Positions 6,728 to 62,531 of a stretch of 64,000 nt of DNA are shown here, in pieces. Position 1 is the first letter of the stretch, and each line of letters begins with the position of its first letter. A model generated the notes under the pieces. The model was given only the letters and a program-made list of their open reading frames with translations, did not search any database and was not told the DNA's origin. Where the stretch lies: NCBI GenBank assembly GCA_022839445.1, contig JALHFC010000006.1, forward strand, positions 2,029 to 66,028. The letters are read 5' to 3'. Both the position numbers and the translations under genes were made by a program. Source of the DNA: Pelotomaculum sp. GTDB lineage: Bacteria; Bacillota; Desulfotomaculia; Desulfotomaculales; Pelotomaculaceae.

Positions 6728-7360
6728 ATGGAAGTTGTTATGGAACGGCTTCAGAAGGTTATGGCCCGGGCCGGGGTGGCTTCCAGGCGGCGCTGCGAGG
6801 AGATGATCGCCGCGGGTATGGTCAAAGTTAATGGGAAAGTAGTTGCCGCGCTTGGAACAAAAGTAGACCCTGCCAGAGACAAAATACAGGTAGGGGGTAA
6901 AACTTTATTCCTTACGCCGCGCAAGTATTATATTCTCATGTACAAGCCCCGCGGCTATGTTTCAACGCTATCCGATGAAAAGGGCAGAAAAAAAGTGACC
7001 GACCTAACTCACCCTAAGCACCATGTGCGGAAAACCTACCTTGTGAGGGTGAAGGGCTTGCCAGCTTGGGAAAAATTAGAGCAAATGACCGGGGGACTGG
7101 TCCTAGAAGACGGCCCGACCGCGCCGGCTGCAGTTCGGCTGGCGGGTGAGCGAGAAGGAAACGCGCTCCTGGAAATTACGATAAGCGAGGGGCGCAACCG
7201 GCAGATAAGGCGGATGTGTGAGCATATCGGCCACCCCGTGCTGCGTCTGAAGCGCACTAGATTTGCCAATCTAAGCATAGAAGGCCTCAAGCCGGGACAG
7301 TGCTGTCATCTAACCGGGGAAGAAGTAGATAAGCTAAAAAAGCTGGTTTTGAATGAATAA
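6728..7360 (+). CDS. rluB: RluB/RsuA-family 23S rRNA pseudouridine synthase lacking the catalytic-Asp motif (in-frame deletion)
   Basis: An N-terminal S4 domain (RLQKVMARAGVASRRRCEEMI) and the C-terminal half (HPKHHVRKTYLVRVKG...EGRNRQIRRMCE) are present. The family block around ...YPVGRLDxxSEGLLLLTNDGEL... is missing between D92-L93 and T94 (about nt 7004-7009). Confidence 0.8.
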   Translation: MEVVMERLQKVMARAGVASRRRCEEMIAAGMVKVNGKVVAALGTKVDPARDKIQVGGKTLFLTPRKYYILMYKPRGYVSTLSDEKGRKKVTDLTHPKHHVRKTYLVRVKGLPAWEKLEQMTGGLVLEDGPTAPAAVRLAGEREGNALLEITISEGRNRQIRRMCEHIGHPVLRLKRTRFANLSIEGLKPGQCCHLTGEEVDKLKKLVLNE

Positions 7361-7598
7361 GCGAGCGAACAAATGTAGCAATAAAGCCTCCACACTTCTT
7401 GAATTCTACCTGTAGGGCTTTATTTGCTGGCTTTACCAGAGCCCCGCAAGATGATTCCTTTTCGCTCCTTATAGACAGGCAGGACTTTTCGCGGTGTTTT
7501 TTGTGATATGTAAAATAACTCAAACAAGAAGGGTTTTCCATAAGTCGAATAGAATATCTAAAATTGTTGACACCCAGTGACGGTGGGAGGGAAAGCTT

Positions 7599-8057
7599 TT
7601 GATAAACGACCAGGGTGAGGGTGGAAGGGACGGCATCCTCGTTAAGGTTCGTCTTGATTTTAAAGGTGCAGGCAAGCCGGGACGATTTTTATTCGGGGGC
7701 AAGTCTACGGATAAAGTTGCGGAAGAGTCAAGAGAACAGCAGGTCGCCATATTCCGGAACGTGCCGCTGCAGGGAATACATATTGAAGATATTGATATGA
7801 GCGCCGAGGTGTACACGGTGTTTGACGACATATCCAACAATGAAATTGCCTTTGCCCCGTTGGTCCTTACCATCAAGGCCGACAGTTTGGAAAATGTGAT
7901 CAAGTTTATAACCAGGGATGACTTTAGAAAAATTGAAATCCTTGATCCGGCCCATATCACTCTAAGCCATAGCGGTATTGAAAGACTTCTCTTTAGAGTG
8001 CACGAGGAAACAAAGGAATACAGAATGAGGCTGGAAAAAAGGTACAATTTAAGGTAA
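7599..8057 (+). CDS. hypothetical protein (152 aa)
   Basis: TTG start 7 nt after RBS GGGAGGGA. No family was recognised. Confidence 0.5.
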   Translation: MINDQGEGGRDGILVKVRLDFKGAGKPGRFLFGGKSTDKVAEESREQQVAIFRNVPLQGIHIEDIDMSAEVYTVFDDISNNEIAFAPLVLTIKADSLENVIKFITRDDFRKIEILDPAHITLSHSGIERLLFRVHEETKEYRMRLEKRYNLR

Positions 8058-8224
8058 AAGCCTTTTGCTACACAATCCCTTCGATTGGTGCCGCTCTTTG
8101 GCAAACGCATTCTGGTATTGTCATGCGATCCAAATGGATTACATTTCTTGGCGGGGGAGTAGAAAATGAAAGTGTTTACCCGCCTTGAAGGCTTTTTAAT
8201 GCGCCGGCTCCTGCAAAGGTTTAA

Positions 8225-8253
8225 TTGCTTTTCAAAAGTCTCTCAGCTATAAT
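8225..8253 (+). promoter_or_regulatory. sigma-A-type promoter for the HutP-family gene
   Basis: TTGCTT (8225-8230), a 17-nt spacer, then TATAAT (8248-8253). Confidence 0.55.
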
Positions 8254-8339
8254 ATGTTTTAAGCACTGTTTTATGGAACAAATTTGTCGAACACTCCTAA
8301 TGTGGAGTGTGTTTTGATCTATAACAAGGGGGGAGCGTT

Positions 8340-8759
8340 GTGACCCTTTTTGGGAGTCGTAAAATAGCCCGTGTGGCGGTTGAAATGGCGATGACTGAGA
8401 GCAGGGAACAGGAGCGGGAATACAAGCAGCGATTTTTTAAGGAAGGAATAAGGACAGCGGCTGTTGACTACGGCGGCGATTTTATTTCTTCTGTGAATAA
8501 GATCATAGAAAGGGCTGTTGTGGCGTCCAAGCGGGAGGGAGTGATCAAAGAGATGCACGCCGACGAGGGGGCTGTGGCCGGGGCGACGCGGGAAGCGCTG
8601 TCTCAGGTTATGCCGAAGGCAATTGGTTTTAACGTCGGCGGTAAAATCGGGATCGCCCGGAAGGAAGATCACATCAGCGTGGCAATATTTTTTGGAGTAG
8701 GGTTGCTGCATTTGGACGAGGTGGCCATCGGTTTGGGCCACAGGGCAGTCCGGTCCTAA
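8340..8759 (+). CDS. HutP-family RNA-binding (antiterminator-type) protein
   Basis: 139 aa. By-eye alignment with B. subtilis HutP over the full length: MTL..R.I.R, ASKREGVI vs ASKKSGVI, ATREAL vs ATMEAL, ISVAIFFGVG vs IAVSLYGTIG, and a GLGH C-terminus. GTG start after GGGGGGAG. Confidence 0.75.
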   Translation: MTLFGSRKIARVAVEMAMTESREQEREYKQRFFKEGIRTAAVDYGGDFISSVNKIIERAVVASKREGVIKEMHADEGAVAGATREALSQVMPKAIGFNVGGKIGIARKEDHISVAIFFGVGLLHLDEVAIGLGHRAVRS

Positions 8760-8787
8760 AAGATGCTTTTTGGGGGGTGACGGTAGA

Positions 8788-9162
8788 ATGGGCGCAATAT
8801 TATTAAGAGGCGTTCGCGGCGCTATTACGGTAGAACGGAATGACGCGGGGGAAATATTTTCAGCTACCAGGGAACTTTTAAAGGCCATGATAAAGGAAAA
8901 TGACATTGATCCCGAAGATATCGCAAGCGTTATTTTTACAGTTACACCGGATTTGAACGCAGGGTTTCCGGCGACAGCGGCGCGGGAGATGGGTTGGCGG
9001 TATGTCCCGCTCCTTGGCGCAACAGAAATAAATGTTCCCGGAATGCCCGGCAAATGTATCAGGGCGCTGGTCCATGTAAATACAGGTAAGTCTCAAAGAG
9101 AATTGAAGCATATATACTTGAGGGACGCTGCCCGGCTGAGGGTGGACCTGGTGCCTCAATAG
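8788..9162 (+). CDS. aroH: chorismate mutase, AroH class
   Basis: LRGVRGAITVERN...VIFTVTPDLNAGFPA...YVPLLGATEINVPG...CIRALVHVN matches monofunctional AroH. ATG 8788 is preferred over the upstream TTG 8770. Confidence 0.9.
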   Translation: MGAILLRGVRGAITVERNDAGEIFSATRELLKAMIKENDIDPEDIASVIFTVTPDLNAGFPATAAREMGWRYVPLLGATEINVPGMPGKCIRALVHVNTGKSQRELKHIYLRDAARLRVDLVPQ

Positions 9163-9278
9163 TTTTAAGTACCTTACCAAAAAGGGCTAAATTATTTTAG
9201 TCAGGTATATTTTTAAGCCAAAAAAAGGATCAAGGTAAGAAATATAGAAATCGGTAGTAAAAATTATAAGGTGAAATT

Positions 9279-9758: not shown

Positions 9759-9788
9759 TTGGATGAGCCGTCATGTGGTAAAAAGTAC

Positions 9789-9817: not shown

Positions 9818-9819
9818 AA

Positions 9820-9873: not shown

Positions 9874-9900
9874 TTTGCGTATTTTCATTTGGGAAAATGT

Positions 9901-9936: not shown

Positions 9937-9953
9937 AAGGGGAGGGATTTCAG

Positions 9954-18596: not shown

Positions 18597-19833
18597 TTGG
18601 ATCTGTATATTAAACCGGTCTGCGGGTTGCGGGGTACAGTAGCTATACCGGGGGACAAATCCATCTCTCACCGGGCGGTAATGCTGGGTGCCCTCCATTG
18701 CCTGCTTTAGAAAATTGGGAGTGGAGATTACAGGACCGGAGGATGGGGTTGTTACCGTATCCGGCCGGGGATTGGATGGCCTGAGAGAGCCGTGCGACAT
18801 CCTTGACGCCGGCAATTCCGGCACTACCATGCGGCTGATCCTGGGTGTTTTGGCCGGGCAACCATTCTTTAGTGTAATCACCGGCGATGATTCCTTGCGC
18901 CGGCGTCCTATGGCCAGGGTAACTCACCCGTTGGGACTGATGGGGGCGCGGATTTCCGGCAGGCAGGACGGCGCTCTGGCGCCCCTGGCCATACAGGGCG
19001 GCAGGCTGGACCCGATCCACTATTATTCCCCGGTGGCAAGCGCCCAGGTTAAGTCGGCGGTTTTGCTGGCCGGTCTTTTTGCGGCAGGGGAGACTGCGGT
19101 AACCGAACCATACCTCTCTAGGGACCATACCGAGCGGATGCTCAGGTATTTTGGGGCGGAAGTGGATGTGTCGGGCGGCGCCATACGGCTAAAAGGCCGC
19201 CCACGCCTTTCGGGCCGGGTACTTAAAGTGCCCGGGGATATATCGTCTGCCGCCTTTTTGATGGTAGCGGCTTCGGCGATACCGGGTTCGGACCTTATCT
19301 TGGCCGGGGTAGGGGTGAATCCCACCAGGGCCGGCATTGTCGACGCGCTTGCAGAAATGGGCGCACATATTGAAATGCTAAATACCCGCCAGGAGGGCGG
19401 TGAACCTGTGGCTGATATCCGGGTGCGCTATAATGGAAGGCTATGTGGCGTATCGCTTGGAGGGGAAATAATCCCCCGCCTTATTGATGAGATACCTGCC
19501 CTAGCTGTGGCGGCTGCGCTGGCCGAGGGTGAAACGGAAATTCGTGACGCCGCCGAGCTAAAGGTAAAGGAGAGCGACCGGATAGCTGCTGTAGTCCGGC
19601 TGCTAACCGGTTTTGGGGCCGCTGTGGAAGAAAGGCCGGACGGCCTGATGGTGAGGGGGAAGCGCACGATAAACGCCTGTATTTGTGAAAGCCACGGGGA
19701 CCACCGTATTGCCATGGCGGCAGCTGTAGCCGGGATGCTGGCCGGAGGGGAAACAGTAGTGCGGGGGGCCGAATGTATTGCTGTGTCCTTTCCTGGATTT
19801 AATGATGTATTAAAAAAAATCAAGGTAGAATAA
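18597..19833 (+). pseudogene. aroA: 3-phosphoshikimate 1-carboxyvinyltransferase (EPSP synthase), disrupted by a ~50-nt deletion/frameshift near codon 33
   Basis: Frame 1 (18597-18710) encodes [33 protein letters not shown], then stops. Frame 2 from 18694 continues [12 protein letters not shown]...LDAGNSGTTMRL... to 19833. The family segment between GAL and the (S/T)I.CFRK motif, about 17 aa, is absent. Confidence 0.8.
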
Positions 19834-39071: not shown

Positions 39072-40180
39072 TTAACCCCGGATGAAGTAGTCCATCAATT
39101 CATGCCCGGGGATTACTAAGCCGCTACTTGCCGCGGCATCTTCGCTAAAGGTCTGGATTTCGTTTTTGTTGTCTTGCCCTTTGGTGTAGATGGCAAACGG
39201 CACCGGATCGTTTGAATGAGTTAAGGTGCTGATTGGGGTTGGATGGTCAGGCAGCAGCGCTATTTTATAGGTATCGTATTGATTAAGTCCTTCTAAAATC
39301 ATGCCCAGCACCGAATCCACCATTTCAATGGCCTTAATCTTGGTTTCGACCTCTCCCCTGTGTGACGCCGCGTCCGGCGCCTCAATGTGGACATAAATGA
39401 AATCCTTGCCCTTTGCCAGTTCATTCATGGCGGCCAGCACATCCAGGCCGGCGCAGGCACCGATACCTTTGATCAGGTCGACTGCCGATATTACGGATCC
39501 GGTAAGGCGGTACTTGTCATAAAACTTTGGCAGCGCGGGTTTTTTCCCCTGGCCCCAGAACCAAATGGCATTAGCCGGTCTTAATCCCGTCGCGATCCTT
39601 TTCTGGTTGACCGGATGGCCGGATAAAAATGTATTGCTTTCCTTCATTAAACGTAAAAGTGTTTCGCTGCCCTCGGCTTTGGGCAGGTGAGGCGCGATAA
39701 CCCGTCCTGATATGTCATGGGGCGGTGTGAGGTCCGTGCCGGTGGTCCCGCCTTTCCACACCAGGAGGTGCCTGAATCCAAATCCGGCGTGAAAACACAA
39801 TTCCTCGTTGCCGAGGCGTATATTGACTTCCCTGATTAATTCCCCGGACTCGCGGGTTGTGATTTCGTCGGCGCTATAATCCACCATTATTTTATCTTCA
39901 TAGATGTCCTCTCCGGAAAGCGTAACCAGGTCGCTTCCAGGGGAGAACGTCCGGTATAGTATTTTTGCGGGTCATACCCCATCACCGAAAGGTTGGCAAC
40001 GTCACTCCCCGGGGGAAATCCTTCCGGTACAGTCACGGCCATTCCGATTTTTCCTTTGGATGCCAGGAAGTCCATGTTAGGTGTGCGGGCATACTGAAGG
40101 GGTGTTTTCCCGTCCAGACCGGCTATTTCCTTGTCGGCCATACCGTCGCCCAGTAAAACCACATATTTCATAGCAGTCAC
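39072..40180 (-). pseudogene. apgM: cofactor-independent phosphoglycerate mutase (ApgM type), disrupted by a ~50-nt deletion/frameshift
   Basis: ORF 40180-39887 ends ...[14 protein letters not shown] then goes out of frame. The other frame resumes [25 protein letters not shown]... (39887-39072). The family segment between PLEA and (C)NLVTLS, about 17 aa, is missing. The junction is at about 39926-39937. Confidence 0.8.
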
Positions 40181-40308
40181 CTTCTATTATAGTTTATAGC
40201 GAAAATACTCCTATTTATTTTACCCGGAAACGCTGTTTAATCGTGGTTTTTATAGTGTTGATTTTCCCTCCGGCAGTGATAAAATGATCAGGAAAGGAGG
40301 GTGCTGCG

Positions 40309-41605
40309 ATGACTGCGATGAAAGAGATGCTAATTTTATCCCCAACGGCTATCCTTGGGTATGGATTTCCGCTTGATTCGTTCTATGAGGGTTTAAAAGA
40401 GCGACCTCATGCCATAGCCGTAGATGCGGGTTCTACCGACCCGGGCCCGTATTACCTGGGCGCCGGGGAATCTTTTACAAACCGGAATGCTGTAAAGCGG
40501 GATCTGGAATTAATTATGGAAGCTGCGGTTAGCCGTAAAATACCGAGAACCCCACTTGAAAAGAGATTATGATCTCATAATGGAGGTATCGCGGCGGAAG
40601 AACCTGCATTTCAGGCTGGCCTTGATTCACGCCGAAGTAGGCAGGGAAAGGGTCAGGAGATCCCTGAGAGAAGGTAAAGTCGTGCCTTTGGGTCCCGCGC
40701 CGCCCCTGCAAGAGGAAGATTTGGACAACACGGTCAGGATTGTAGGGCAGATGGGCGTTGAGCCACTGACAGGCGCGCTGGAGGCCGGAGCGGATGTGGT
40801 TGTGGCCGGCCGGGCATACGATCCGTCAGTTTTTGCCGCCCCCCATATGGGCAAGATTTTGGAATGCGGCGCCATTGCCGCCATACCTGGCAGCGGCAGC
40901 GACTGCCTCATGGGATGTCTGGGGGAGGAGTATTTCGAGGTTTGGCCGTTGAACCCGGTCAGGTGCTGTACGGTTACCTCTGTGGCCGCCCATACCTTGT
41001 ATGAAAAAACCAACCCGCTTTTACTGCCTGGTCCCGGGGGTTATCTGGACCTGAAAGAGGCAAAGTTTACGCAGGTGAGTGAAAACCGGGTAAGGGTGAC
41101 GGGGAGCAAGTTTATCCCTTCGGACAGGTATACTGTCAAACTGGAAGGTGTGAAGAAGGCCGGTTACAGGACAGTTAGCATCGCCGGTTGCCGCGACCCG
41201 GTCATGGTAAGGGAAATCGACCGGGTGACCGGGTTGGTAAAAGAAAGGACACGGGATAATTTCGCCGCTGCAGGTTATGAATATACCCTCGATTTTAAGC
41301 TATATGGCATAAACGGTGTGATGGGGAAGCTGGAGCCGGAGCAGGCTCCTCACCCTCGTGAACTTGGTGTCGTAATTGAGGCTGTGGCCCAAACTCAGGA
41401 AGTTGCCGACACTATCTGCAGCTTTGCCCGGTCAACTATGCTCCACTGCAGTTATCCCGGCCGTATTGCCACGGCCGGCAACCTGGCTTTCCCGTTCTCA
41501 CCGTCGGATTTCAGGGGTGGGGAGGTATACCGGTTCAGTGTCTACCACCTAATGGAAGTGGACGATCCTTTTGAGCTTTTTCCGATGGAAATGATAGATG
41601 TTTAA
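40309..41605 (+). pseudogene. AtuA-like (DUF1446) protein, disrupted by a short deletion/frameshift
   Basis: ORF1 (40309-40572) reaches ...EAAVSRKIP. ORF2's frame reads EPHLKRDYDLIMEVSRRKNLHFRLALIHAE... to 41605. The expected Gly-rich block (about 10 aa, ...IIGSAGG...) is missing. The junction is at about 40546. Confidence 0.65.
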
Positions 41606-47786: not shown

Positions 47787-49084
47787 AACAAACAATGACA
47801 CAAGTCATGTTACCTCACTGGAAGCCCGCCGGAATAATGGGTTCAATCAGGGGAAGGACATTTTACCTGAAGAAGACTCTCTGGGTGAACTTTTAATCCA
47901 TATGCGCAGGGTGCGGGAGGCGGTCCCGGTTAACGAGCGCCTCAAGTCGGAGTTGAAGGCGCGGCTGCGCGGCTGGCCGCATTTCAGGCGGAGAGTGCCG
48001 CAAGCCGGCCCCAATTAGAAAGCGCAGCGGCCGGGAATAACGGGTGGTTTTCTGTTTTGTTGCGGCCGTGGCTTTTGTGGCTGCTGCCGGCGGCCTTGCT
48101 GATGGCTCTTTTAGGGATATGGTGGGCAAATGCAGCGCCGAAAACGATAGAAGCCGGTCAAACCAGGGAAATATGCCGCTTTTGGTCTGAAGAAAGCCCC
48201 CTGCAGTTTGCCTGCTTTCCACAGGCAAAGGGATTTCTGGTGGTAAGGGACGGGCGCCTGTACCTGCTGGATCAATACGGCAACGGGTCCGGTGTGGTCA
48301 AACCTCCCGCAGGGCAATCCTACGCTTATCCCGCCCTGACCCGTTCCGGCGACATGTTGGCGCTGGTGCGGCGGCATGACACGGGCGTCAGGGCATGCGC
48401 CTGTCCGGCCTGGCCTGGTCTCCCGACGGGCAAACTCTGGCGTATTCTCTAGGTGAACCAGGCAAAGAGAATATAATCTTCATTATGGCAAAAGGCGGAA
48501 CTCCTGAATCCTTGGGCGCCGGGGGAAGCCCCGCCTGGTCTCCGGACGGCGCCCGTCTGGTGGTGGAACGCGCCGGAGAAGGCGGGCGGCCGGAGCTGTG
48601 GCTGACAGGTCCGCAAACTGTTGAATTCCGCCTTGCGGAGGGCGGGTTGCCGGCTTGGAGCCCCAAAGGGTATCTGGCTTTTGTCAGGGTTAATATCACT
48701 GAGCGGGTGCTCGCTTTCAGGCCAGACGGGTCGCCGCTGTTTACCGTGCGGCAGCCTCAGGGGGAAATCAGGGTTCTCTGTCTCGGGCGCAAGGGCGAAC
48801 TAGGACCTGCAAGCCGGAATGGACAACCGGTTTCGGGCGACCGTCTGCTGCTGGCCCCGGATACCGGGCCCGGGAAAGATGAGCTGAACTGGCTGCGCAG
48901 GCTTGAACTGGAAGGTGCAAGGGAGCCCCGGACGTTATTGTTAAGCCAGATCAACAATTATCAGGGTTTAAGTTTTAGCCAGGATGGCAAAACCTTGCTG
49001 GTAGCCCGCCGGGAGGGGGAAGCGGCGGTTCTGGTACAGCTGAATCTGAGCGAAAAGTTGGTTAAAGGGGGTGACCGGCTATGA
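47764..49084 (+). pseudogene. anti-sigma factor with single TM and TolB-like (PD40 repeat) extracytoplasmic domain, split over three frames
   Basis: 47764-48018 is the cytoplasmic part, overlapping the sigma stop. 48057-48452 carries the TM segment LLRPWLLWLLPAALLMALLGIWW, and that frame is open upstream back to about 47945. 48395-49084 carries repeated AWSPDG motifs. Frame switches occur near 47965-47975 and 48385-48395. Confidence 0.65.
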
Positions 49085-53121: not shown

Positions 53122-53198
53122 TCCCGGTGCATCCGTTACCTTATAACATTTCAAACGTCTAAATTTGTAAATGAAAATAAAAAAGGAGGAGATATATA

Positions 53199-54965
53199 AT
53201 GAAAGTCGTGAAGGCAGCCGCTGCCGCGCTGGTGGCAGTGATGTTGCTCACTACGCCTGTATGGGCCGCGGAAAAGGAGGCGTCAAACGTCCAGGTTAAC
53301 AGCGGTCCGGAGGTGATTGTGCAAGACGAGACCGCCGGACAACTGCTGTCAAAGAAGGTAGAATTGAGCCAGGCGCAGCAGAAGGTTCTGGAAAAAATTT
53401 ATGAATGTGTGCCTGAATTAAAGGAACTGGCACTAGAAAGCGTGCATGACGAGGGGGATATTACCTGGGGGGTAACTTTTAGCGACCGCAATGGCGCCGT
53501 GGAGCCGGGCATCCATTATGCTCATGCCTACCTGCATTTCGACAAGGATACAGGCCAGTTGATGAGTATGAATATCCATAACCCGGAATGGGCTTCCGAG
53601 CAATTACCGGCGACTGATCTGGCAAAAGAAAAGGCAGCCGCGTTTGCCCAAAAGCTTCTGGGGGACAAAATGAATAATTACCGGATGGGCTCTGTAGGTT
53701 ACGGCGGTGGGGGCACAGCGGACGAAAAGGGAAACATGATCTATTGGGCAAATGCAAATGTGCAGTTTAAACGCCTGATCAACGGCGTACCCTTTATGAA
53801 TAGCGGATTCCAAGTGAGTGTCGACGTTGCCGGCCATATTACCATGTATTATTCGCAAGGCTTTCATAAAAACATTGACGGTGTAAGGGATGTTGAACCG
53901 GAACTAGGTGTGTTCCCCGATCCTTGCCTGGCCGTGACGAAGGAAGAGGCGGAAAAGGCTTTTGCCGAACAGTTGGAAATGAAGCTGAGCTACGTCGGGC
54001 AGCAGCCCCTGAAGGACTCAATGTTTAATAGGGAGAAAGTCGAAACCAGGCCGGTTTTAATGTACAGTCCTTCTTATCCTTCTTGTTCTGTGCCTATAGA
54101 TGCCATGACGGGGAAACCGCTGGACGGGTTGCGGGGGCGTCTGCCGCTGACCAGCCCGGTAAAACTAGCCGGAGAGGGCAAGAAACTGGCCGCCGGGACT
54201 CCCGAAGAAGTGGCCTCCTTGCTTGCCGCTGAAACCGGCATTGATATGTCCGGCATGAAATCTGGGAGTGTGGAAGAACGGGAAGATCGTTTCGATCCCG
54301 GGGTTAAAGTAAAAGAGTACAACTGGATGTCCGAACCGCAAACAGGACCGGACGGCAAACCGGATTTCAGCACGATGCGTTATTTGCATGTTACGACACT
54401 GGCGGACACCGGTCAGGTTGTCAACTTCAACCTCCAGGATCAGTCCGGACGCGGCGAGCAGGCGGCAATATCACTGGAAGCAGCCCGTAAAACAGCGCTC
54501 CGGTTTATGCAAAAGCACCTGAAGAAAGGCGCTTGTGAGCTGGAAATGAGTATTTATTCGACTTATGAAGAGAACATTCCCGACTGGGTGGACCGGAGCA
54601 AGCTGGAAGGCTATGAGCAGCGGCCGGAATTTCATTTTTATTTCACGCGCACCCACCAGGGCATCCCGGTTTCGGATAGTTCGTACTCTGTTACGGTAGA
54701 CGGCCTGACCGGCAAGATTACAAGTTTTGTTGACGTGAACAGTGCCTCGTCCGTCACCCTGCCGGACAGCAAGAACATTGTGACGGCCGAAGCAGCCAAG
54801 GCCGAATATCTAAAGAGTAAAACCTTAAACCTGGTTTACCTCTGGCCGGAGTATTACAACCAGAAAGCGCCCAAACCTTACCTGATCTACATTCCCGAAA
54901 ACGCTGCAAGCTTGGAGTACATCGACGCCTTTACCGGCAAGATGGTGATTGTTGAAAGAGATTAA
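53199..54965 (+). CDS. secreted repeat protein (possibly PepSY/YcdB-like)
   Basis: 588 aa with signal peptide AVMLLTTPVWAAEK and strong RBS AAAGGAGGAG. The domain assignment is tentative. Confidence 0.6.
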   Translation: MKVVKAAAAALVAVMLLTTPVWAAEKEASNVQVNSGPEVIVQDETAGQLLSKKVELSQAQQKVLEKIYECVPELKELALESVHDEGDITWGVTFSDRNGAVEPGIHYAHAYLHFDKDTGQLMSMNIHNPEWASEQLPATDLAKEKAAAFAQKLLGDKMNNYRMGSVGYGGGGTADEKGNMIYWANANVQFKRLINGVPFMNSGFQVSVDVAGHITMYYSQGFHKNIDGVRDVEPELGVFPDPCLAVTKEEAEKAFAEQLEMKLSYVGQQPLKDSMFNREKVETRPVLMYSPSYPSCSVPIDAMTGKPLDGLRGRLPLTSPVKLAGEGKKLAAGTPEEVASLLAAETGIDMSGMKSGSVEEREDRFDPGVKVKEYNWMSEPQTGPDGKPDFSTMRYLHVTTLADTGQVVNFNLQDQSGRGEQAAISLEAARKTALRFMQKHLKKGACELEMSIYSTYEENIPDWVDRSKLEGYEQRPEFHFYFTRTHQGIPVSDSSYSVTVDGLTGKITSFVDVNSASSVTLPDSKNIVTAEAAKAEYLKSKTLNLVYLWPEYYNQKAPKPYLIYIPENAASLEYIDAFTGKMVIVERD

Positions 54966-55131
54966 AAGCCGGGGACATGTCCCCCTGTCCCTGAAAATAA
55001 AATTTAGGGGGTCGATCTTTAAACTTGAGCCGGTAAGAGGCACGTGCCATTATAATTGATGGATGACGCTGAAGTTTTCTAAGGGTTGTAACAATGTTAC
55101 CGGGCTATCTTATGTCGTCCAACATTAAAAA

Positions 55132-55160
55132 CGGCCACCTTAAAAGGCGGCTGTTTTTTT
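55132..55160 (+). terminator. intrinsic terminator in the spacer upstream of aspA
   Basis: CGGCCACCTT / AAGGCGGCTG imperfect stem followed by T7. Confidence 0.6.
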
Positions 55161-55303
55161 ATCAGGAAGACTATTGTTTAATTATTCGAATAGTGGGGCG
55201 GTACGGTTTTATCCGGTATTGTTGTTCAACAACAAAGGGTATCGACACCGCCAAACCCTTGAAAATATTTGCCCGGCGCCGGGTACACAATATAAAAAAA
55301 ATA

Positions 55304-55331
55304 TTGATATTTGGTTCATGTCCGTTATAAT
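55304..55331 (+). promoter_or_regulatory. sigma-A-type promoter of aspA
   Basis: TTGATA (55304-55309), a 16-nt spacer, then TATAAT (55326-55331). Confidence 0.55.
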
Positions 55332-55374
55332 AATTTATGTCGCATATTCTAAACCGACGAAGGAGATGGGTTCC

Positions 55375-56835
55375 ATGGAAAAGCGCGGAGAAGAACAGGT
55401 GCAAGGGTACAGAGTCGAACAAGATTTTATCGGAAAAATGGAAGTTCCCAGCGGAGTCTACTATGGTGTTCAAACTGCCAGGGCGTTGGAAAATTTCCCG
55501 ATCACCGGCTATCGCTTGGACGGGGCGTTGATCAGCGCTATGGGAATGGTGAAAAAAGCGACTGCTCTGGCCAACGTAAAAGCCGGCCTGCTGGATGAGC
55601 GGCGCGGGAAGGCCATCGCCGATGCTGCACAGGAAGTGATGGAAGGGAAGTTTAACGACCAGTTTGTTGTGGATCCTATCCAGGGTGGCGCCGGGACCTC
55701 TGTTAACATGAATGCCAACGAAGTCATCGCCAACCGGGCGATCGAGATCCTTGGCGGAAAGCTAGGCGACTACAGCCTGATTTCAGCCAACAACCATGTC
55801 AATATGTCACAGTCAACCAACGATGCTTTCCCGACTGCCCTGCGCATTGCCCTCCTTAACAAAGCCAAAGCCCTGTTGCAGGCGACAGGGGAGGTGGAAA
55901 AGGAGCTAAGGCTAAAATCAGTTGAGTTTGACGATGTCTTGAAAATAGGGCGCTCGCACCTACAGGACGCCGTGCCGGTTCGGATGGGGCAGGAGTTCGG
56001 AGCCTACGCCGATGTGGTGGCCCGTTCCATACAGCGGTTGAAGCAATCCTGCAAAGGATTGCTGGCAGTCAACATGGGGGCAACAGCTATCGGTACTTCC
56101 CTTAACGCCGATGCTACCTACATTGATCAGGTAATCAAGAGCCTGCGTGAGATCTCCGGGATAGACTTGTGCTTAGCCGATAACCTGATCGATGCCACGC
56201 AAAACACCGACGCCTTTGTCGAATTTTCCGCTTCGATGAAAACCCTGGCCGTGGTGTTGTCCAAGATTGCCAACGACTTGCGGCTGTTAGCATCCGGACC
56301 TTACTGCGGACTGAAAGAAATCAACCTGCCCCAAATGCAGCCCGGTTCTTCCATAATGCCCGGCAAAGTAAACCCGGTGATTGCTGAAGTGGTAAACCAG
56401 GTGGCCTTTCAAGTTATAGGCAATGACTTAGTGGTGACACTAGCTTCGGAAGCCGGCCAGTTTGAGTTAAACGTCATGGAACCGGTCATGGCCTTTAACC
56501 TTTTGCACTCCGCCAACATCTTAACCAATGCGCAGCGCGTTTTTGCCAGTCGTCTAATCCGGGGAATCACAGCCAACCGGGAACGTTGCCGTGAGATGGT
56601 GGAAAATAGCGTTTGTATTGTGACTGCGCTGAACCCGCACCTGGGATACGGGATGACCTGCGCTATTGCCAAGGAAGCTATGCAAGAAGGGCGCAAGGTC
56701 CGTGACATTGTGCTGGAAAAAGGGCTTATGTCTGAAGAAAAGTTGGATAAGGTGCTTGATGCCTATGAAATGACCAAGGTGGGAATCGCCGGCAAAGAGT
56801 TCCTGGCAGGGCCTGCCGAATCGCCAGGGGAATGA
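55375..56835 (+). CDS. aspA: aspartate ammonia-lyase
   Basis: YRVEQDFIGKMEVPSGVYYGVQTARALENFPITG N-terminus, TNDAFPTA, and the signature GSSIMPGKVNP. ATG 55375 lies after GAAGGAGA. Confidence 0.88.
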   Translation: MEKRGEEQVQGYRVEQDFIGKMEVPSGVYYGVQTARALENFPITGYRLDGALISAMGMVKKATALANVKAGLLDERRGKAIADAAQEVMEGKFNDQFVVDPIQGGAGTSVNMNANEVIANRAIEILGGKLGDYSLISANNHVNMSQSTNDAFPTALRIALLNKAKALLQATGEVEKELRLKSVEFDDVLKIGRSHLQDAVPVRMGQEFGAYADVVARSIQRLKQSCKGLLAVNMGATAIGTSLNADATYIDQVIKSLREISGIDLCLADNLIDATQNTDAFVEFSASMKTLAVVLSKIANDLRLLASGPYCGLKEINLPQMQPGSSIMPGKVNPVIAEVVNQVAFQVIGNDLVVTLASEAGQFELNVMEPVMAFNLLHSANILTNAQRVFASRLIRGITANRERCREMVENSVCIVTALNPHLGYGMTCAIAKEAMQEGRKVRDIVLEKGLMSEEKLDKVLDAYEMTKVGIAGKEFLAGPAESPGE

Positions 56836-56876
56836 CCGTCTCTCACGTAAGGGGCACGAACTATAAAAGTTTATTA

Positions 56877-56915
56877 AACATAAGGACCGGCTATTTTAGT
56901 GGTCCTTATGTTTTA
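56877..56915 (+). terminator. intrinsic terminator after aspA
   Basis: A 12-bp stem AACATAAGGACC / GGTCCTTATGTT followed by TT(A)AT. Confidence 0.7.
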
Positions 56916-57289
56916 ATCCAGTATTATACCAATATTGCCAACCTTTGTAGTATTTTGGGGGTGCATGTTTTAGTGTCTAGCAATGATACTTGTTTTTGAG
57001 GTAGCCGTAGAAGGCACAAAAAATGTCACCCGGATGTAGCCGCGAACTGATTAAATGGGACACGAAGAAAATCTTAGTTCTCAAACAAGTGGAATGTTAT
57101 AAACGAAAATAGCGAAGAGAGGTGAATAGCCTAGTTTGCTGGCAGCATTCTAGGGAACAACTTTTTAGGCGCAAGCATAGGTTGATTTCTTGCTTGTAAA
57201 GAAAAGTTGTAGCCCGGCGTGGAACCTGTGAAACTGCTACCCGTTAGTCGGACGGGTGATAAACCTATTTTTTAAACCTGCTGGCCGGA

Positions 57290-57562
57290 GTGGACAGGGC
57301 GGTGAGAAACCAATTTGGCGGTCTCTACCCGGCGGAAATAATAGCCCAAGCGCTAAGGATTTTAGGCCAAGGTCTTAAAGTGTGTGTAGAAATTTCAACA
57401 ATGTCCCTGGACGCGGGTCTAATACCTTACGGGGAAGAGGTAGTTGCCGTGGCAGGTACCGGGTCCGGTGCGGACACTGCTGTGGTAATTGCGCCGGCTC
57501 ATTCCAACAGGTTTTTTGACACAAAGGTTAAAGAAATAATCTGTAAACCAAGGGAAATTTAA
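57290..57562 (+). pseudogene. C-terminal remnant of a pyruvate-kinase-alpha/beta-domain-like (PK_C) protein
   Basis: The 90 aa (FGGLYPAEIIAQALRILGQGLKVCVEISTMSLDAGLIP...GTGSGADTAVVIAPAHSN.FFDTKVKEIICKP) match only the C-terminal half of the roughly 190-aa family. In-frame stops lie just upstream. Confidence 0.6.
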
Positions 57563-57593
57563 TAATTAATAAGGTACCACAGTGTTAACAAAG

Positions 57594-57615
57594 GCCGTCC
57601 AAACGGGCGGCTTTT
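57594..57615 (+). terminator. intrinsic terminator
   Basis: GCCGTCC aaac GGGCGGC followed by TTTT. Confidence 0.65.
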
Positions 57616-57704
57616 GCTGTTAAAAGTGTTATGCTAGGGTAAAGGTAGGACTTTTGTTGTTTCCAGTGGAAGAAATAACATATTGCAGGGGGAAGGGGAA
57701 AACC

Positions 57705-57758
57705 ATGAATATTGCACATGCTATACTTGTGCTTGTCCAACCCGGTCAACTATTGTAA
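57705..57758 (+). promoter_or_regulatory. candidate 17-codon leader ORF (MNIAHAILVLVQPGQLL) upstream of the ABC-F gene
   Basis: RBS GGGGAAGGGGA lies 5 nt upstream. The stop codon sits inside a 7-bp hairpin CAACTAT/ATAGTTG (57748-57771), just before the ABC-F RBS. Confidence 0.3.
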
Positions 57759-57786
57759 ACTGGATAGTTGAAAGGAGAGGGCAGTT

Positions 57787-59697
57787 TTGATCCTGGTACA
57801 GGCGGCGCAAATAGCAAAATCTTTCGGCTCTCACAGAGTTTTTACCAACCTCAGTCTTATTATTCAAGAGGGGCAGAAGGTTGGTATTGTTGGCGTTAAC
57901 GGGGTGGGCAAATCCACTTTTTTGAAAATATTGACCGGCGAACTAGCGCCTGACGCCGGTGAGGTAATAAAAGCCAGGGAGTTGTCGTTGTCCTACCTGG
58001 CCCAGGATGGCGGTCTAGAATCGGGACACAGTATTTGGGACGAGATGCTTACGGTGTTTACCCCGCTTATTGATATGGAAAAAAAACTGCGGGCAATGGA
58101 AAGGCAGATGTCTAAAACCTCCATGGGTGAGTGCGCTAGTAAGCAATTACTGGAGAGCTATGATAACCTTTATGCTTTGTTTAAAAGCCAAGGCGGTTTC
58201 GACTATGAGACCAGCACCCGTATGGTGCTGAGCGGGCTGAAATTTGCCGGTACCGACCTTTCCACTCCGGTCAATACCTTGAGCGGAGGTCAGAAAACAC
58301 GCCTGGCCCTGGCCCGCTGCCTGCTTGGCGAACCGGACCTGCTAATTTTGGACGAACCAACAAATTATTTGGATATGGACAACCTGGCTTGGCTGGAGCA
58401 GTACCTTAAATCATACCGCGGGGCTGTGCTGGTGGTTTCACATGACAGGTATTTCCTTGATTCCCTGGTTAGAATCATATATGAATTAACACCTTCCGGC
58501 CTTACCCGTTACACCGGCAATTACAGCTCATATATCCAACAAAAAGCTGTCCTAATCGCTCAACAGTTGAAAGACTATAACCGGCAGCAGGCCGAAATCG
58601 TCCGCCAGGAGGAATTTGTGCGGCGCAATATCGCCGCCAAAGACACCACCAGGCGGGCGCAAAGCCGTCTCAAGGCGCTGGGAAAAATGGATCGCCTGGA
58701 ACGCCCGGGCAGGGAGCGGCGGGTGGCCCTATCCTTTAACCTTACACGTCCAAGTGGTATGGAGGCGTTGCAGACATTCGGCCTGGATATCGGTTACGCT
58801 GGTCAACCCTTGGCCGGTGGCTTGGATTTGCAAATAAACAGGGGCGAGCGGGTAGCTCTAGTTGGTGCAAATGGCGCCGGCAAGTCTACCCTCCTAAAGA
58901 CCATTGCCGACAAGCTTGCGCCCCTGGCCGGGCGAGTAACGCTAGGCAGTCATGTCCGGCTAGGCTATTACGACCAGGAACAACACGGGCTACACGGTGA
59001 CAAGCCGGTCCTGCACGAGCTTTGGGACCGTTACCCCAACCTGGACGAGGTGGATGTACGTACTGTGCTGGGCAGGTTTTTATTTTCAGGTGATGATGTG
59101 AAAAAACGTGTGGCCAACCTAAGCGGTGGTGAAAAATCCCGGCTAGCGCTGGCCGCGTTAATGCTACGGAAGGCTAATTTTTTACTCCTGGATGAACCCA
59201 CCAACCACCTGGACTTGCCTGGCAGGGAGGCGCTGGAGGAAGCCCTAGACGGCTATCCGGGTACTATCCTATTTGTATCGCACGATCGCTACTTTATTAA
59301 TAAAGTAGCGACTAGGGTGCTGGAACTCTCAAACAGTGAGATCTCCAGCTACCTTGGGAACTATGATTACTATTTTTTGAAAAAGGTAGAACGGGAGCAG
59401 CAGGCGGTTAAAGCTATTAACACCGGGCCGGTCCGGGTGGAAAGCGCGGAAAAGAGGAATTATCTGCTAAGGAAAGAAGAAGAACGGCAAAAACGTATGC
59501 GACGCCACCGGGTGGAAGAACTGGAACGGGTTATTGCTGAGCTGGAGGATACTATTTCCCGTCTTGAGGCGGAGCTTTTGTTGCCCGAAGTTTACCGGGA
59601 TTATGTAGCCTGCCAGGTACGGCAGGGCGAACTGGAGGAGGCCCGCTCTAATCTGCACGACCATATGGAAAAGTGGCTGGGTCTGGTAGAGGATTGA
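57787..59697 (+). CDS. ABC-F family ATPase (translation factor / possible ribosome-protection type)
   Basis: 636 aa with two ABC cassettes (GVNGVGKST ... LSGGQKTRLAL; GANGAGKST ... LSGGEKSRLAL), no TM domain, an inter-domain linker and a coiled-coil C-terminal extension. Confidence 0.92.
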   Translation: MILVQAAQIAKSFGSHRVFTNLSLIIQEGQKVGIVGVNGVGKSTFLKILTGELAPDAGEVIKARELSLSYLAQDGGLESGHSIWDEMLTVFTPLIDMEKKLRAMERQMSKTSMGECASKQLLESYDNLYALFKSQGGFDYETSTRMVLSGLKFAGTDLSTPVNTLSGGQKTRLALARCLLGEPDLLILDEPTNYLDMDNLAWLEQYLKSYRGAVLVVSHDRYFLDSLVRIIYELTPSGLTRYTGNYSSYIQQKAVLIAQQLKDYNRQQAEIVRQEEFVRRNIAAKDTTRRAQSRLKALGKMDRLERPGRERRVALSFNLTRPSGMEALQTFGLDIGYAGQPLAGGLDLQINRGERVALVGANGAGKSTLLKTIADKLAPLAGRVTLGSHVRLGYYDQEQHGLHGDKPVLHELWDRYPNLDEVDVRTVLGRFLFSGDDVKKRVANLSGGEKSRLALAALMLRKANFLLLDEPTNHLDLPGREALEEALDGYPGTILFVSHDRYFINKVATRVLELSNSEISSYLGNYDYYFLKKVEREQQAVKAINTGPVRVESAEKRNYLLRKEEERQKRMRRHRVEELERVIAELEDTISRLEAELLLPEVYRDYVACQVRQGELEEARSNLHDHMEKWLGLVED

Positions 59698-59774
59698 ATT
59701 AATAAAAAAGATTTAATTTATCGACATATTGATATATTTATGTGCACAGAAAAGAACAGAAAAATAACAAGCTT

Positions 59775-59806
59775 AAACGTCCGATGGGTTTGGACGTTTT
59801 TGTTTT
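59775..59806 (+). terminator. intrinsic terminator after the ABC-F gene
   Basis: AAACGTCC / GGACGTTT 8-bp stem followed by TTGTTTT. Confidence 0.75.
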
Positions 59807-60173
59807 CCGGCAGCATCCTCTCATAAGAGGACGGTTGGATGTCGTAAAGCCTGGCCAGTGTTTTTTCCAGCCGGTTGGCCTTGGGAACAGGGTGGGTAGG
59901 TGGCAGGACAACGCCAAATCGTTGGCCGCAATGCTACCGACTTTCCCATATGTACAGGATGAAGATTGGGTGGGCAGGAAAACAATTCAACCAAATGTTA
60001 ATGATAATAATTAATATCCGGTTAATACTCTGCTTCTCAACTTAAATAGATATAAAGGTTACCTTAATGAAGTAAAAATATTAAAAAATTCGCAAACGCG
60101 GGCTATGACAACGGCAAGAATTACACAAGCCTGAAAGCAAAGGGAATAATGTGAGGGAAAAGGTAGTGTTAAA

Positions 60174-60422
60174 ATGCCGCATCCGATATATAATAACCTT
60201 GAGGTGATTAATGTGGCAGTCGAGAGGAAGCATGTTAAAGCTCTTATAGACCAGTTGAACGATGAACAAGTACGGGCATTATGGGTCATACTTAATTCTA
60301 TGGCCTGGCCGACCGAAAAGATCTCAGCGAAAGAAGCAGTAGAAATAGAAGAATCTTTTACCGAGATAGATGCCGGAAAAGGCGTAAAAGCCGAAGACGT
60401 CTGGAGGGAACTCGGTGTTTGA
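60174..60422 (+). CDS. putative type II antitoxin
   Basis: 82 aa and acidic. It overlaps the downstream RelE-like gene by 8 nt. Confidence 0.6.
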   Translation: MPHPIYNNLEVINVAVERKHVKALIDQLNDEQVRALWVILNSMAWPTEKISAKEAVEIEESFTEIDAGKGVKAEDVWRELGV

Positions 60423-60672
60423 GATAACATTTTCCCCGCAGGCTATACGGCAGCTAAAATCTTTAGAAAGAAACTTGCAAGAACGGATTAAAGCGGCTTT
60501 AGAAAGAAACCTACGCATGTTTCCACCCAAGGGAGATGTTGTTAAGCTGGAATACGCTGATAATCGCTTCAGGTTACGAGTAGGTGACTGGCGAGTAACT
60601 TACAGATACGTGTTTGAAAATCAGGAAGTTCACATAGCTGAAGTCATACACCGGAGTAAAGCGTATCGATAA
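60415..60672 (+). CDS. RelE/ParE-family type II toxin
   Basis: 85 aa; FRLRVGDWRVTYRY....V.IAEVIHRSKAY matches the RelE/StbE core pattern. Confidence 0.8.
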   Translation: MFEITFSPQAIRQLKSLERNLQERIKAALERNLRMFPPKGDVVKLEYADNRFRLRVGDWRVTYRYVFENQEVHIAEVIHRSKAYR

Positions 60673-60914
60673 TACTGAAGTTAAATAAAGTTATGGCCCG
60701 AACGGCCAAGAAGAGGACGGAAAACAGGACAAATGATCCTAACCGTCCTTTATTATTCTAACTTAAATGGGTTCTGGAAGGCACTGGCTCCTCCGACGAG
60801 TCGGGCTTGCCACCTCGGGCCGGTGATGGCGCCGTTAATACAAAAAATTAAAATGTTAACCCAAGCCAAGGCTAAAGACGTGGTAAAATATAGTTAGCTA
60901 TAAAGACAGAGGTG

Positions 60915-61159
60915 ATGCTCTTGTACCATTCCAGAAATATAGATAATGATGTAACACAATATATTCCATTGTTAGTCGAAGTTCTAAACGGAAGAGGGTT
61001 TGCTGCCTAAAGACCTGGCTGATACCATGAAGCAGATTGCAGGCTTTACGAAATATTTTGGTCCATGATTATCTGGAGATTGATCCAAAGATCGTATACG
61101 AAAGTTTAAAAAAGCTTAGTGATTTTAAAAGATTTGCCGAACATGTTATAACCTGGTAG
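60915..61159 (+). pseudogene. HepT/DUF86-type toxin remnant with two frameshifts
   Basis: Three frames together read ...LLVEVLNGRG / LLPKDLADTMKQIAGF / RNILVHDYLEIDPKIVYESLKKLSDFKRFAEHVITW*. The RNxLVHxY motif is the DUF86 signature. The N-terminal third and the cognate MntA gene are absent. Confidence 0.6.
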
Positions 61160-61307
61160 AATTATAGCAGACAGCACGGTAGAAAAAAATAATTGTGTCA
61201 GAATTTGTGTTAAATATATCTGTTGGGGGGGGGACTAATTCGATTACTTATGTTGTGGTTTTATTATTCTAGGGCTAAGCGCCTGGAAATTCAAGGAGTG
61301 ATTTTAC

Positions 61308-61523
61308 ATGTTAGAATTTAACGCAACCCTTATAGCACAAGCTGTTGACCTTTTAATTCTTATTATTGTTTTTGGTGGCATTATCGCTATTATTTTTAAA
61401 ACCCGTTCTTTTGTTAAAAATGTTCATAATAAAATTGAAAGGATGGATAACGAGATAAAAGAAATAAAAAATATTTTGAAAACAAACTCTGCTTTTTTTA
61501 ATGAAAGGAATGTGCAAGATTGA
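61308..61523 (+). CDS. small membrane-anchored coiled-coil protein (71 aa), hypothetical
   Basis: RBS AAGGAG, one TM segment, AT-rich context. Confidence 0.4.
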   Translation: MLEFNATLIAQAVDLLILIIVFGGIIAIIFKTRSFVKNVHNKIERMDNEIKEIKNILKTNSAFFNERNVQD

Positions 61524-61534
61524 AGCAATAATTC

Positions 61535-62531
61535 ATGCCTATTAAAGTATTTATTGAAAGTGAGAGAGACAAGTTGAAGTTAAAAAACATTATAATAATA
61601 ACAATTGCCGGTGTTTTTGCGGTTTGTGCAATTTGGAGTTGGTTCTCATTAAGTCCGACTATTAAACCGAAAGACATTGAAATGATTGGGGTTTTGAAAG
61701 ATAGGGGAAATGATTCTTGTGTTACCACACCATATTACTTAAATATTCAGTTAATGAATTAATCCGGAAGACCCCTTTGCAATAAGGAAAGCTACTTTCA
61801 TTTTGTGTATCCATATACAGATGGGGCCGGAATTGGTATTTACGACTTCAATAAAGGCTGGTCGGAAGGCAGACCCGTGGGCCAGGAGGAGTTCGTGATT
61901 GGTTCGGACAGCAGAATAGAGCGCTTTGCAGGCGGGAAGCTTGAGCAAATTGGAATACAGCTTCCCGGCGATTCATCATACGGATTTAAGCAGTATTTGC
62001 CGGATGGATTGCAATTTAGAGGAGAGCAGTATCCGGCGGTAGCAAGGATGTATGTTAATTATTTTGGTAAGCCATTTAGAAAAGAAAACTTGGTTTTAAT
62101 TTATGCTCATTACGAAAAGAGATGTTTCTCCAGATGGCGGGGAGGTGGCCATAGCCTACCATGATGGCGGGCGGCATGAGGGACCGCACCTGCTATCAAC
62201 TAACGGGGATGGAAAGGACCGCTTTTTGAAGATGCATATTTCTCCTCGCGGATTTGCCTGGTCCGATGACGGAAAAAAAGTGGCCTATTGGGGCGGACAA
62301 GGGAGTTCAGCCGAATGTTTTACCGTCGATATTTTTGATCGTGAGAGCGGGCAAAATATAACCCGTCTACAAGGCGTGCAAAACTGCGTTTTCCTGGACA
62401 ATAAAAACCTGCTTTTCGTAAGGTTGGAAGGTGAGGCCTTTTCCTCCTCTTATCCCGCCCTGGTAAACCTGGAGGGCAAATCTATCGAAATAGTACCGGG
62501 CATTGAAAGGGTATCCAGGGTGGCGAAATAG
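61535..62531 (+). pseudogene. membrane-anchored PD40/beta-propeller-like protein split over three frames
   Basis: 61535-61762 carries the TM anchor; 61805-62164 and 62103-62531 carry DVSPDGGEVAIAY and FAWSDDGKKVAYW repeats. The consecutive fragments overlap. Confidence 0.5.

Follow-up and report, generated by a model that had tools for sequence, protein, structure and literature searches.

The 64,000-nt stretch of Pelotomaculum sp. DNA analysed here (the window; contig JALHFC010000006.1 of assembly GCA_022839445.1) raises a question that bears on every gene call made within it: do the short internal deletions and frameshifts that run through at least eight of its genes record a genome in the process of losing them, or did they arise when the sequence was put together? 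The first-pass annotation, made from the sequence alone, had left two alternatives standing, ongoing pseudogenisation and a systematic assembly artefact. For the lesions in rluB, aroA, apgM, the AtuA-like gene and the anti-sigma gene, the second is supported: independent assemblies restore the full-length genes, and on the sequence evidence the lesions almost certainly mark places where short-read contigs were wrongly joined, gene decay being a very unlikely origin. The same annotation had placed a PK_C stub, a HepT remnant and a set of split open reading frames in the same group, which is not supported, as these three lesions are common to all assemblies of the species.

Lesions private to one assembly

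All of the lesions that had been noted are physically present in the deposited sequence of GCA_022839445.1. We compared the window with the corresponding loci of its species in Logan, ENA and NCBI, drawn from 15 or more runs or assemblies (including Logan SRR18493543/45/46/47, SRR11702760/66/67 and SRR30309658, ENA ERZ3460579 and NCBI GCA_028684745.1), and the lesions split into two classes. Class A consists of nine events private to this assembly, namely eight deletions and one 8-nt tandem duplication, while class B consists of three that are found species-wide. The class-A events, which we read as probable hidden joins, that is, contig joins written without Ns, are as follows.

7004..7005, rluB (+ strand): 102 nt (34 codons) missing, in frame; 2-nt microhomology
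18694..18695, aroA (+ strand): 56 nt missing, frame shifted; no microhomology
39439..39440, apgM (- strand): 54 nt missing, in frame; the 54 nt are carried by 7 of 7 spanning loci
39931..39932, apgM (- strand): 49 nt missing, frame shifted; the 49 nt are carried by 8 of 8 spanning loci
40197..40198, spacer between the divergent apgM and AtuA-like genes: 46 nt missing, carried by 8 of 8 spanning loci
40545, AtuA-like gene (+ strand): 32 nt missing, frame shifted; the 32 nt are carried by 9 of 9 spanning loci
40842..40843, AtuA-like gene (+ strand): 36 nt (12 codons) missing, in frame
47959..47974, anti-sigma/PD40 gene: 8-nt tandem duplication, GCGCGGCT twice; single copy in 6 of 6 spanning loci
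48388, anti-sigma/PD40 gene (+ strand): 112 nt missing, frame shifted; the 112 nt are carried by 7 of 7 spanning loci

The flanks of these lesions are 99.6-100% identical to the independent assemblies on both sides, and at eight of the nine sites the intact form is found in all 6 to 10 spanning loci. Every assembly that spans a site carries the missing bases in full, with the sole exception of the sibling MAG GCA_022840665.1 (locus L030), which at aroA has 47 of the 56 nt and is without the other 9. The 8-nt duplication occurs in none of the assemblies that span 47959-47974. Thus about twenty independent assemblies carry the genes intact, an outcome that had been named beforehand as speaking against pseudogenisation. 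Nor do the lesions look like gene decay in other respects: the class-A flanks have accumulated no substitutions relative to the intact copies, as the damage spectrum of a decaying gene would entail, and none of the nine lesions is common to conspecific genomes in the way expected of a pseudogene, as the three class-B lesions are.

The consequences for the encoded proteins are clearest in rluB, where a loss of about 100 nt in frame had been noticed at 7004 and where the exact figure is 102 nt at 7004/7005. The missing segment, present in ten loci of independent assemblies, covers the GRLD catalytic block. In a BLASTP alignment the window's RluB matches the intact protein, which we found on 21 contigs, at 210 of 210 residues apart from a 34-aa gap, and its coverage of the PF00849 profile falls to positions 63-152 from the 1-152 of intact RluB. 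At aroA the estimated loss of about 50 nt at 18695 proves to be 56 nt at 18694/18695; the 56 extra nt are present in loci L029 and L078-L083 (six runs), intact AroA (430 aa) is encoded on 19 contigs, and the aroA genes of family-level relatives (~70% identity) are likewise about 56 nt longer at the site of the join.

Five of the joins fall within 1.4 kb, between 39.4 and 40.8 kb, and the pieces between them measure 266-493 nt, as small contigs do. The losses already noticed here were about 50 nt in apgM at 39930 and about 30 nt in the AtuA-like gene at 40546, which resolve to 49 nt at 39931/39932 and 32 nt at 40545, the latter removing a Gly-rich block of the AtuA-like protein. At the 40842 junction the 36 extra nt are found in all nine spanning loci, eight of which have an identical 36-nt segment. 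In the other assemblies apgM encodes 400 aa and the AtuA-like gene 454 aa. The losses of 54 nt in apgM (39440), 46 nt in the intergenic spacer (40197) and 36 nt in the AtuA-like gene (40842) had been overlooked earlier. Further downstream, both of the frame switches placed in the anti-sigma gene at about 47970 and 48390 are present, the first being the 8-nt duplication, with no deletion, and the second the 112-nt deletion; this gene encodes 474 aa in other assemblies.

The neighbouring core genes (the trp genes, der, spoIVA, hom and the rest), described at the outset as being of normal length, are indeed so, showing only scattered single-base substitutions and no length differences relative to the other assemblies. 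Because the sequence away from the nine joins is 99.6-100% identical to those assemblies, calls made there can be trusted. As a separate observation, cmk is a 227-aa gene in other assemblies, compared with a 234-aa open reading frame here, the start codon being different.

A probable scaffolding origin for the private lesions

GCA_022839445.1 is a scaffolded MAG of 367 contigs, with an N50 of 10 kb and 84% completeness, and it contains 89 N-runs of 1-126 nt. The five N-runs that we checked against other assemblies fall 39-108 nt short of the true gap (25 Ns standing for 133 nt, 60 for 139, 85 for 169, 19 for 125 and 26 for 65). N-runs therefore understate the true gaps, such that a gap shorter than about 100 nt would receive no N at all. 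In keeping with such a threshold, true sizes at hidden joins range from -8 to 133 nt (median 56) and those at N-marked gaps from 65 to 169 nt (Mann-Whitney p = 0.006). The model in which the number of Ns equals the true gap minus about 80 is nevertheless a noisy one, as a 133-nt gap in contig C203 was written without any N.

Contig C203, chosen at random, contains four more hidden deletions, of 93, 133, 108 and 74 nt, the last of them in alaS. The window's contig holds nine hidden joins and no N-run, compared with one hidden join and four N-runs over ~52 kb in three other contigs, which indicates that the rate of hidden joins is uneven; hidden joins and N-runs occur in the same contig in C203 and C264. 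Extrapolating from the sampled contigs gives roughly 120-370 hidden joins genome-wide. A second extrapolation, from the length distribution of the N-runs (exponential, mean 40 nt), gave ~870, and was dropped for being far above the rate observed in the sample.

The errors extend to related assemblies. Of the sibling MAGs, GCA_022840665.1 has 4 private deletions and GCA_022841065.1 has 7, all of 31-107 nt, and there is one 64-nt tandem duplication besides; in 28 kb of GCA_028684745.1, a MAG from another accession series, there is no such lesion. Some break points recur between the sibling MAGs, for which random low coverage alone is an insufficient explanation. Strain polymorphisms were rejected as a general cause of the breaks, since six of the eight missing segments are invariant between assemblies, the exceptions being an A/G site in rluB and the 9-nt difference in aroA. 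The missing segments also show no clear GC bias, their GC contents (0.32-0.78) being scattered around the genome mean. When we looked for short direct repeats at the junctions, as had been proposed for intact orthologues, none flanked the class-A lesions: the 13 deletions examined all have microhomology of just 0-2 nt, and slippage between direct repeats was rejected on this ground.

We therefore put the probability that the nine class-A lesions are faulty joins from the scaffolding of a short-read metagenome assembly at about 0.95, an estimate drawn from sequence comparison. Several features that mark such an artefact are found together here: private lesions, a scaffolded assembly, junctions without repeats, loss alongside overlap duplication, and errors that occur across the genome and follow the pipeline rather than gene function. 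Under the mechanism that we propose, the genome would first have been assembled into short contigs, some of only 266-493 nt in the region between 39.4 and 40.8 kb, and these would then have been ordered by paired reads. Wherever the estimated distance came out at or below zero, neighbours would be abutted without any N. A real gap of 32-112 nt beneath such a zero-length join would leave its bases absent and resemble a deletion, and contigs that truly overlap by 8 nt would have those bases doubled, so that a butt join of this kind would give exactly the duplication at 47959-47974. Positive distance estimates would lead to Ns, accounting for the 89 N-runs elsewhere. Reads supporting the class-A junctions would, we infer, be absent.

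Could the deletions instead be real and strain-specific, the product of recent pseudogenisation by end joining? End joining could also yield junctions with 0-2 nt of microhomology. However, it would require fourteen lesions to have arisen recently within 131 kb, between flanks 100% identical to those of intact conspecifics and without further signs of decay; these would have struck alaS, aroA and the catalytic block of RluB, and five of them would lie within 1.4 kb. One of the lesions is a duplication of the overlap type, the sizes are continuous with those of the N-gaps of the same assembly, and the pattern repeats, in some cases at identical positions, in two sibling MAGs, while being absent from the MAG of the other series. 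We consider this account very unlikely, and no more credit is due to a population lineage that had very recently undergone 30-130 nt microhomology-free deletions (for example, by error-prone end joining) and was assembled faithfully, which we regard as an outside chance. The converse proposal, that the window is correct and the extra bases elsewhere are insertions, has in its favour the bare length difference and nothing more. The extra segments restore conserved positions (the GRLD block of RluB and positions 1-152 of PF00849), AroA, ApgM and the AtuA-like protein reach full length only with them, the aroA segment is also present in family-level relatives at ~70% identity, and about twenty independent assemblies agree. 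We take the relatives' aroA segment, the RluB alignment and the PF00849 coverage to refute the insertion reading, and its probability is negligible.

A less distant alternative retains an artefact and moves it to another step, with the scaffolder making no zero-length gaps and either Ns having been written and later removed or a gap-closing program having erred. The coexistence of hidden joins and N-runs in C203 and C264 is compatible with this, as is the finding that a 133-nt gap has no Ns and a 65-nt gap has 26, for which a single threshold on the estimate is inadequate. However, the survival of 89 N-runs, down to 1 nt, argues against wholesale stripping of Ns, and the size separation between hidden and N-marked gaps fits a threshold applied to a noisy estimate. 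We judge this alternative unlikely, while giving it appreciable weight. With faulty joining in scaffolding as our preferred reading, the software step responsible could be the scaffolder's treatment of non-positive gap estimates, or gap closing.

Remnants shared across the species

The class-B lesions lie between 57 and 62.5 kb and comprise the following.

57290..57562 (+ strand): short open reading frame whose resemblance to a PK_C-type domain is confined to the C-terminal half; weak match to PF02887
60894..61156 (+ strand): HepT (DUF86) toxin remnant spread over frames, beside a ParE-type pair in a low-GC stretch
61535..62531 (+ strand): three consecutive open reading frames (75, 119 and 142 aa), a genuine feature of the species, either a split gene or a remnant

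All three match five other assemblies at 100% DNA identity, and class B accordingly consists of real features of the species. The PK_C-like open reading frame is also called in other assemblies, and its match to PF02887 covers profile positions 56-113 of 114 at an E-value of 2.9e-4, below the Pfam cut-off. The earlier suggestion that a PK_C gene had lost its N-terminal half thus stands to the extent that only a C-terminal half matches, at sub-threshold strength, and falls as an assembly lesion, since the DNA is the same elsewhere. The HepT remnant is borne out by a match of 61031-61156 to PF01934 (positions 82-120 of 120, E 3.4e-10) and by its reading in three frames. The last region had been described as a PD40-like gene split into three frames. 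Split it is, and the open reading frames are called likewise in other assemblies; the first two share a frame with a stop between them and the third lies in another, making two frames separated by one in-frame stop and one frameshift, and the PD40-like label is not upheld, as no significant family match was found in this region (Pfam E 0.82). Mixed damage of the kind expected in decaying genes (stops, 1-nt shifts, dead-frame substitutions) is confined to the HepT and split-frame region, and GC is 0.384 over 60-62 kb. Taken together, the three lesions are genuine gene remnants in or adjoining a low-GC stretch with toxin-antitoxin genes.

Consequences for users and known parallels

The class-A lesions have no biological significance; their weight is practical and falls on users of the databases. 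GCA_022839445.1 is the species representative and the only one of its genus among the genomes searched, and by our extrapolation it would contain some 120-370 unmarked joins that shorten genes or shift their frames, aroA, alaS and rluB among them. At that rate it is an unreliable source of protein entries, gene-length statistics, pathway calls ("no EPSP synthase") and pseudogene counts, and at least two sibling MAGs have the same defect.

Two known situations offer comparisons. As in pseudogenisation during reductive evolution, conserved genes here are broken by frameshifts and internal losses, and the PK_C stub, the HepT remnant and the split open reading frames belong in that company. The nine class-A lesions do not, being private, having flanks without accumulated substitutions and striking essential genes. 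Their closer parallel is the class of faulty-join errors described for IDBA-UD and CLC assemblies (Chen et al. 2020, Genome Res 30:315, PMC7111523). In common with those MAG errors, the lesions would lie at contig joins inside scaffolds, with a consensus that the true sequence does not support; N gaps accompany mis-joined or overlapping ends, and incomplete or wrong protein-coding sequences reach public databases. The two differ in form. The published errors involve unsupported consensus and Ns written despite an overlap, whereas here there are mainly no Ns though 32-133 nt are missing, and overlapping bases appear in duplicate, again with no Ns (8 nt in the window and 64 nt in a sibling MAG).

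Broken genes in the window and their intact counterparts

Three-frame translation and Pfam searches recovered the lesions that the first-pass annotation had reported in rluB, aroA, apgM, an AtuA-like gene and an anti-sigma factor gene. RluB is read as an open 210-aa frame in which ...KKVTDL is joined directly to THPKHH..., with its PF00849 match beginning at profile position 63, while AroA has codons 1 to 30-odd in one frame and the other 381 aa in another, the PF00275 match starting at position 49. ApgM is in two pieces (97 and 271 aa), as is the AtuA-like gene (87 and 349 aa), and the anti-sigma/PD40 gene downstream of the sigma factor is in three. The broken frames and partial matches therefore place the lesions truly in the window's sequence.

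A protein search with the window's 210 aa found a 244-aa RluB, identical at 210/210 residues and carrying 34 more, including VYPVGRLDYDSEGLLLLTNDG. Twenty-one contigs, drawn from many public runs and assemblies, encode exactly this protein, and 19 encode an intact 430-aa AroA; other assemblies give 400 aa for apgM, 454 aa for AtuA and 474 aa for the anti-sigma/PD40 protein. Loci around rluB and three other window genes were fetched from other assemblies of the species and all compared with the window by BLASTN. They cover the entire window at 99.6-100% identity, one (L029) being 100.000% identical across 19,427 nt and four (L036 to L039) across 14-15.6 kb. Exactly nine differences from the window are common to all spanning loci, with 6-10 loci behind each and L030 at aroA as sole dissenter. 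The earlier observation was thereby largely upheld, except that it counted too few lesions.

Differences common to all spanning loci (minus, missing from the window; plus, extra in the window)
7004/5: -102 nt, rluB, in frame
18694/5: -56 nt, aroA, frameshift
39440: -54 nt, apgM, in frame
39931/2: -49 nt, apgM, frameshift
40197/8: -46 nt, spacer between apgM and AtuA, intergenic
40545: -32 nt, AtuA, frameshift
40842/3: -36 nt, AtuA, in frame
47959-47974: +8 nt, anti-sigma/PD40 gene, frameshift
48388: -112 nt, anti-sigma/PD40 gene, frameshift

The other assemblies also differ among themselves. L030, a locus of the sibling MAG GCA_022840665.1, lacks 9 nt of aroA in frame, GGCGGAAGG, at L030:391 (window 18694), its left edge exactly that of the 56 nt missing from the window; this may be a real three-codon polymorphism or another join error. 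The 102-nt rluB segment missing at window 7004 has one A/G site, divided 5 vs 5 among ten other assemblies (L009-L018). ENA contig NODE_689 (L040:5129-5363) is 184 nt longer than window 53099-53149, unalignably, at the end of an ABC-2 permease gene; all other assemblies match the window there, and the longer segment is probably strain variation. L026 (ENA ERZ3460576 NODE_10381, coverage 4) has 14 single-base indels relative to the window in 7.6 kb, with its spoIVA and MFS genes split, an assembly error of a different kind in another deposit.

Deletion, insertion or hidden join

Insertion in the other assemblies is excluded by the intact lengths in conspecifics together with the aroA site, where family-level relatives (~70% DNA identity) also carry ~56 nt more; the window has therefore lost sequence, without a gain elsewhere. 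Ongoing pseudogenisation, one of two explanations offered by the first-pass annotation, is refuted for five of its eight genes, which independent sequencing restores to full length. Slippage between direct repeats is likewise excluded, because microhomology at the eight window deletions (0, 0, 0, 0, 1, 1, 2 and 2 nt) is at chance level. The missing segments share no common composition (GC 0.43-0.78), and two of the eight vary among other assemblies. The other explanation offered, a systematic assembly artefact, is supported by lesions that are private to this MAG (G000) and intact in independent assemblies, and from these comparisons we would assign it a probability of about 0.95 for all nine lesions; we infer that read support is absent at the junctions. 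At 47959-47974 the 8 extra nt make a perfect tandem duplication, GCGCGGCT GCGCGGCT, as would be written if two contigs overlapping by 8 nt were abutted end to end. Five joins inside 1.4 kb bound pieces of 493, 266, 348 and 298 nt, and this 266-493 nt range matches small contigs from a thinly covered stretch. Some scaffolders trim or abut contigs at a negative estimated distance, which would yield exactly such joins.

The 64-kb window comes from C344, the largest contig of G000 (70.7 kb of a 2.08-Mb genome in 367 contigs; N50 10.4 kb, 84% completeness, 0.3% contamination); no other species representative searched belongs to the same genus, and near-identical proteins carry names that put G000 in the Desulfotomaculaceae. 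N-runs number zero in the window and 89 in the rest of G000 (1-126 nt, median 30); such variable lengths point to scaffolding by paired ends in which gap sizes were estimated. When four other G000 contigs were compared with independent assemblies, runs of 25, 60, 85, 19 and 26 N stood for true gaps of 133, 139, 169, 125 and 65 nt, falling short by 39-108 nt (mean 83). On that scale, estimates for true gaps shorter than about 100 nt would come out at or below zero, and the contigs would be written without N. True sizes differ accordingly between such hidden joins (-8 to 133 nt, median 56) and N-marked gaps (65-169 nt; Mann-Whitney p = 0.006), with a noisy fit in which one 133-nt gap carries no N.

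Contig C203, picked by random draw, has four hidden deletions and one N gap in the 15 kb compared (-93 nt in a NifU-type gene, -133 nt, -108 nt in a molybdopterin dehydrogenase gene and -74 nt in alaS), and C264 has one further hidden deletion (-56 nt, with one sibling-MAG locus as the only reference). The 131 kb compared yielded 14 hidden joins in all, besides 5 N gaps, and at face value the joins extrapolate to ~220 genome-wide (Poisson range ~120-370) from a small sample partly chosen for N gaps; the rate is uneven, with nine in the window against a single one across the 52 kb compared on C68, C87 and C264. Differences of 12 nt at C87:17251 (relative to only two of the reference assemblies covering it) and C68:21077 (relative to the sole ENA/Logan locus there, the sibling-MAG locus L054 having the G000 form) are probably real in-frame polymorphisms, not join errors.

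Remnants between 57 and 62.5 kb

A PK_C-like ORF, a HepT remnant and split ORFs at 61535-62531 are features of the organism: over 48388-64000 the window matches five assemblies at 100.000% identity, and gene callers give the same short ORFs. The ORF at 57290-57562 (90 aa), described earlier as a PK_C gene without its N-terminal half, does match only the second half of the profile and has stops directly upstream, but the match is weak and below the cut-off (E 2.9e-4); a truncated remnant is plausible, not proven. The HepT call was confirmed at PF01934 positions 82-120 of 120 (E 3.4e-10) and by NCBIfam HepT_toxin (E 4e-9), with upstream pieces in other frames. For the supposed PD40-like gene at 61535-62531 the split holds, as one in-frame stop and one frameshift, but no significant family match was found in Pfam or NCBIfam. 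GC is lowest at window 60000-62000 (0.384), where the HepT remnant and split ORFs lie beside an antitoxin/ParE pair, and the stretch resembles an accessory island in genuine decay; together with the PK_C stub ~3 kb upstream, these remnants look like ordinary decay in accessory DNA.

Sibling MAGs and known assembly errors

NCBI loci were compared with Logan and ENA loci to check other MAGs. GCA_022840665.1 has four hidden deletions (43-105 nt) and two N gaps 114-121 nt too short in 76 kb, and GCA_022841065.1 seven hidden deletions (31-107 nt) and one 64-nt tandem duplication in 48 kb; GCA_028684745.1, from another accession series, had no such lesions in the 28 kb compared. Gaps or joins at C68:18710-18796, C87:11212-11232, C203:19115-19142, C203:20146 and window 18694 coincide with lesions in the siblings, the written lengths differing (e.g. 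a true 169 nt is given as 85 N or as 48 N). The defect therefore tracks the deposit series, and breaks recur systematically at some positions, perhaps through within-sample variants or coverage dips.

Some 1.7 kb past the window's 3' end, after a heavy-metal ATPase, lies an 1832-aa gene call with Flagellin_N and Flagellin_C ends (L036:17926-21911, L038:16966-20951, L041:8201-12186), a giant flagellin-type protein that GCA_022841065.1, with two private deletions there, calls as 954 aa plus a fragment.

The window's nine private lesions should not be taken as biological, and they are a warning on the species-representative G000 and its sibling MAGs. Local assembly errors and scaffold-gap errors are described in IDBA-UD and CLC assemblies by Chen et al. 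(2020, PMC7111523), who warn that such errors pass wrong gene sequences into databases; the joins in G000 are of the same general kind.
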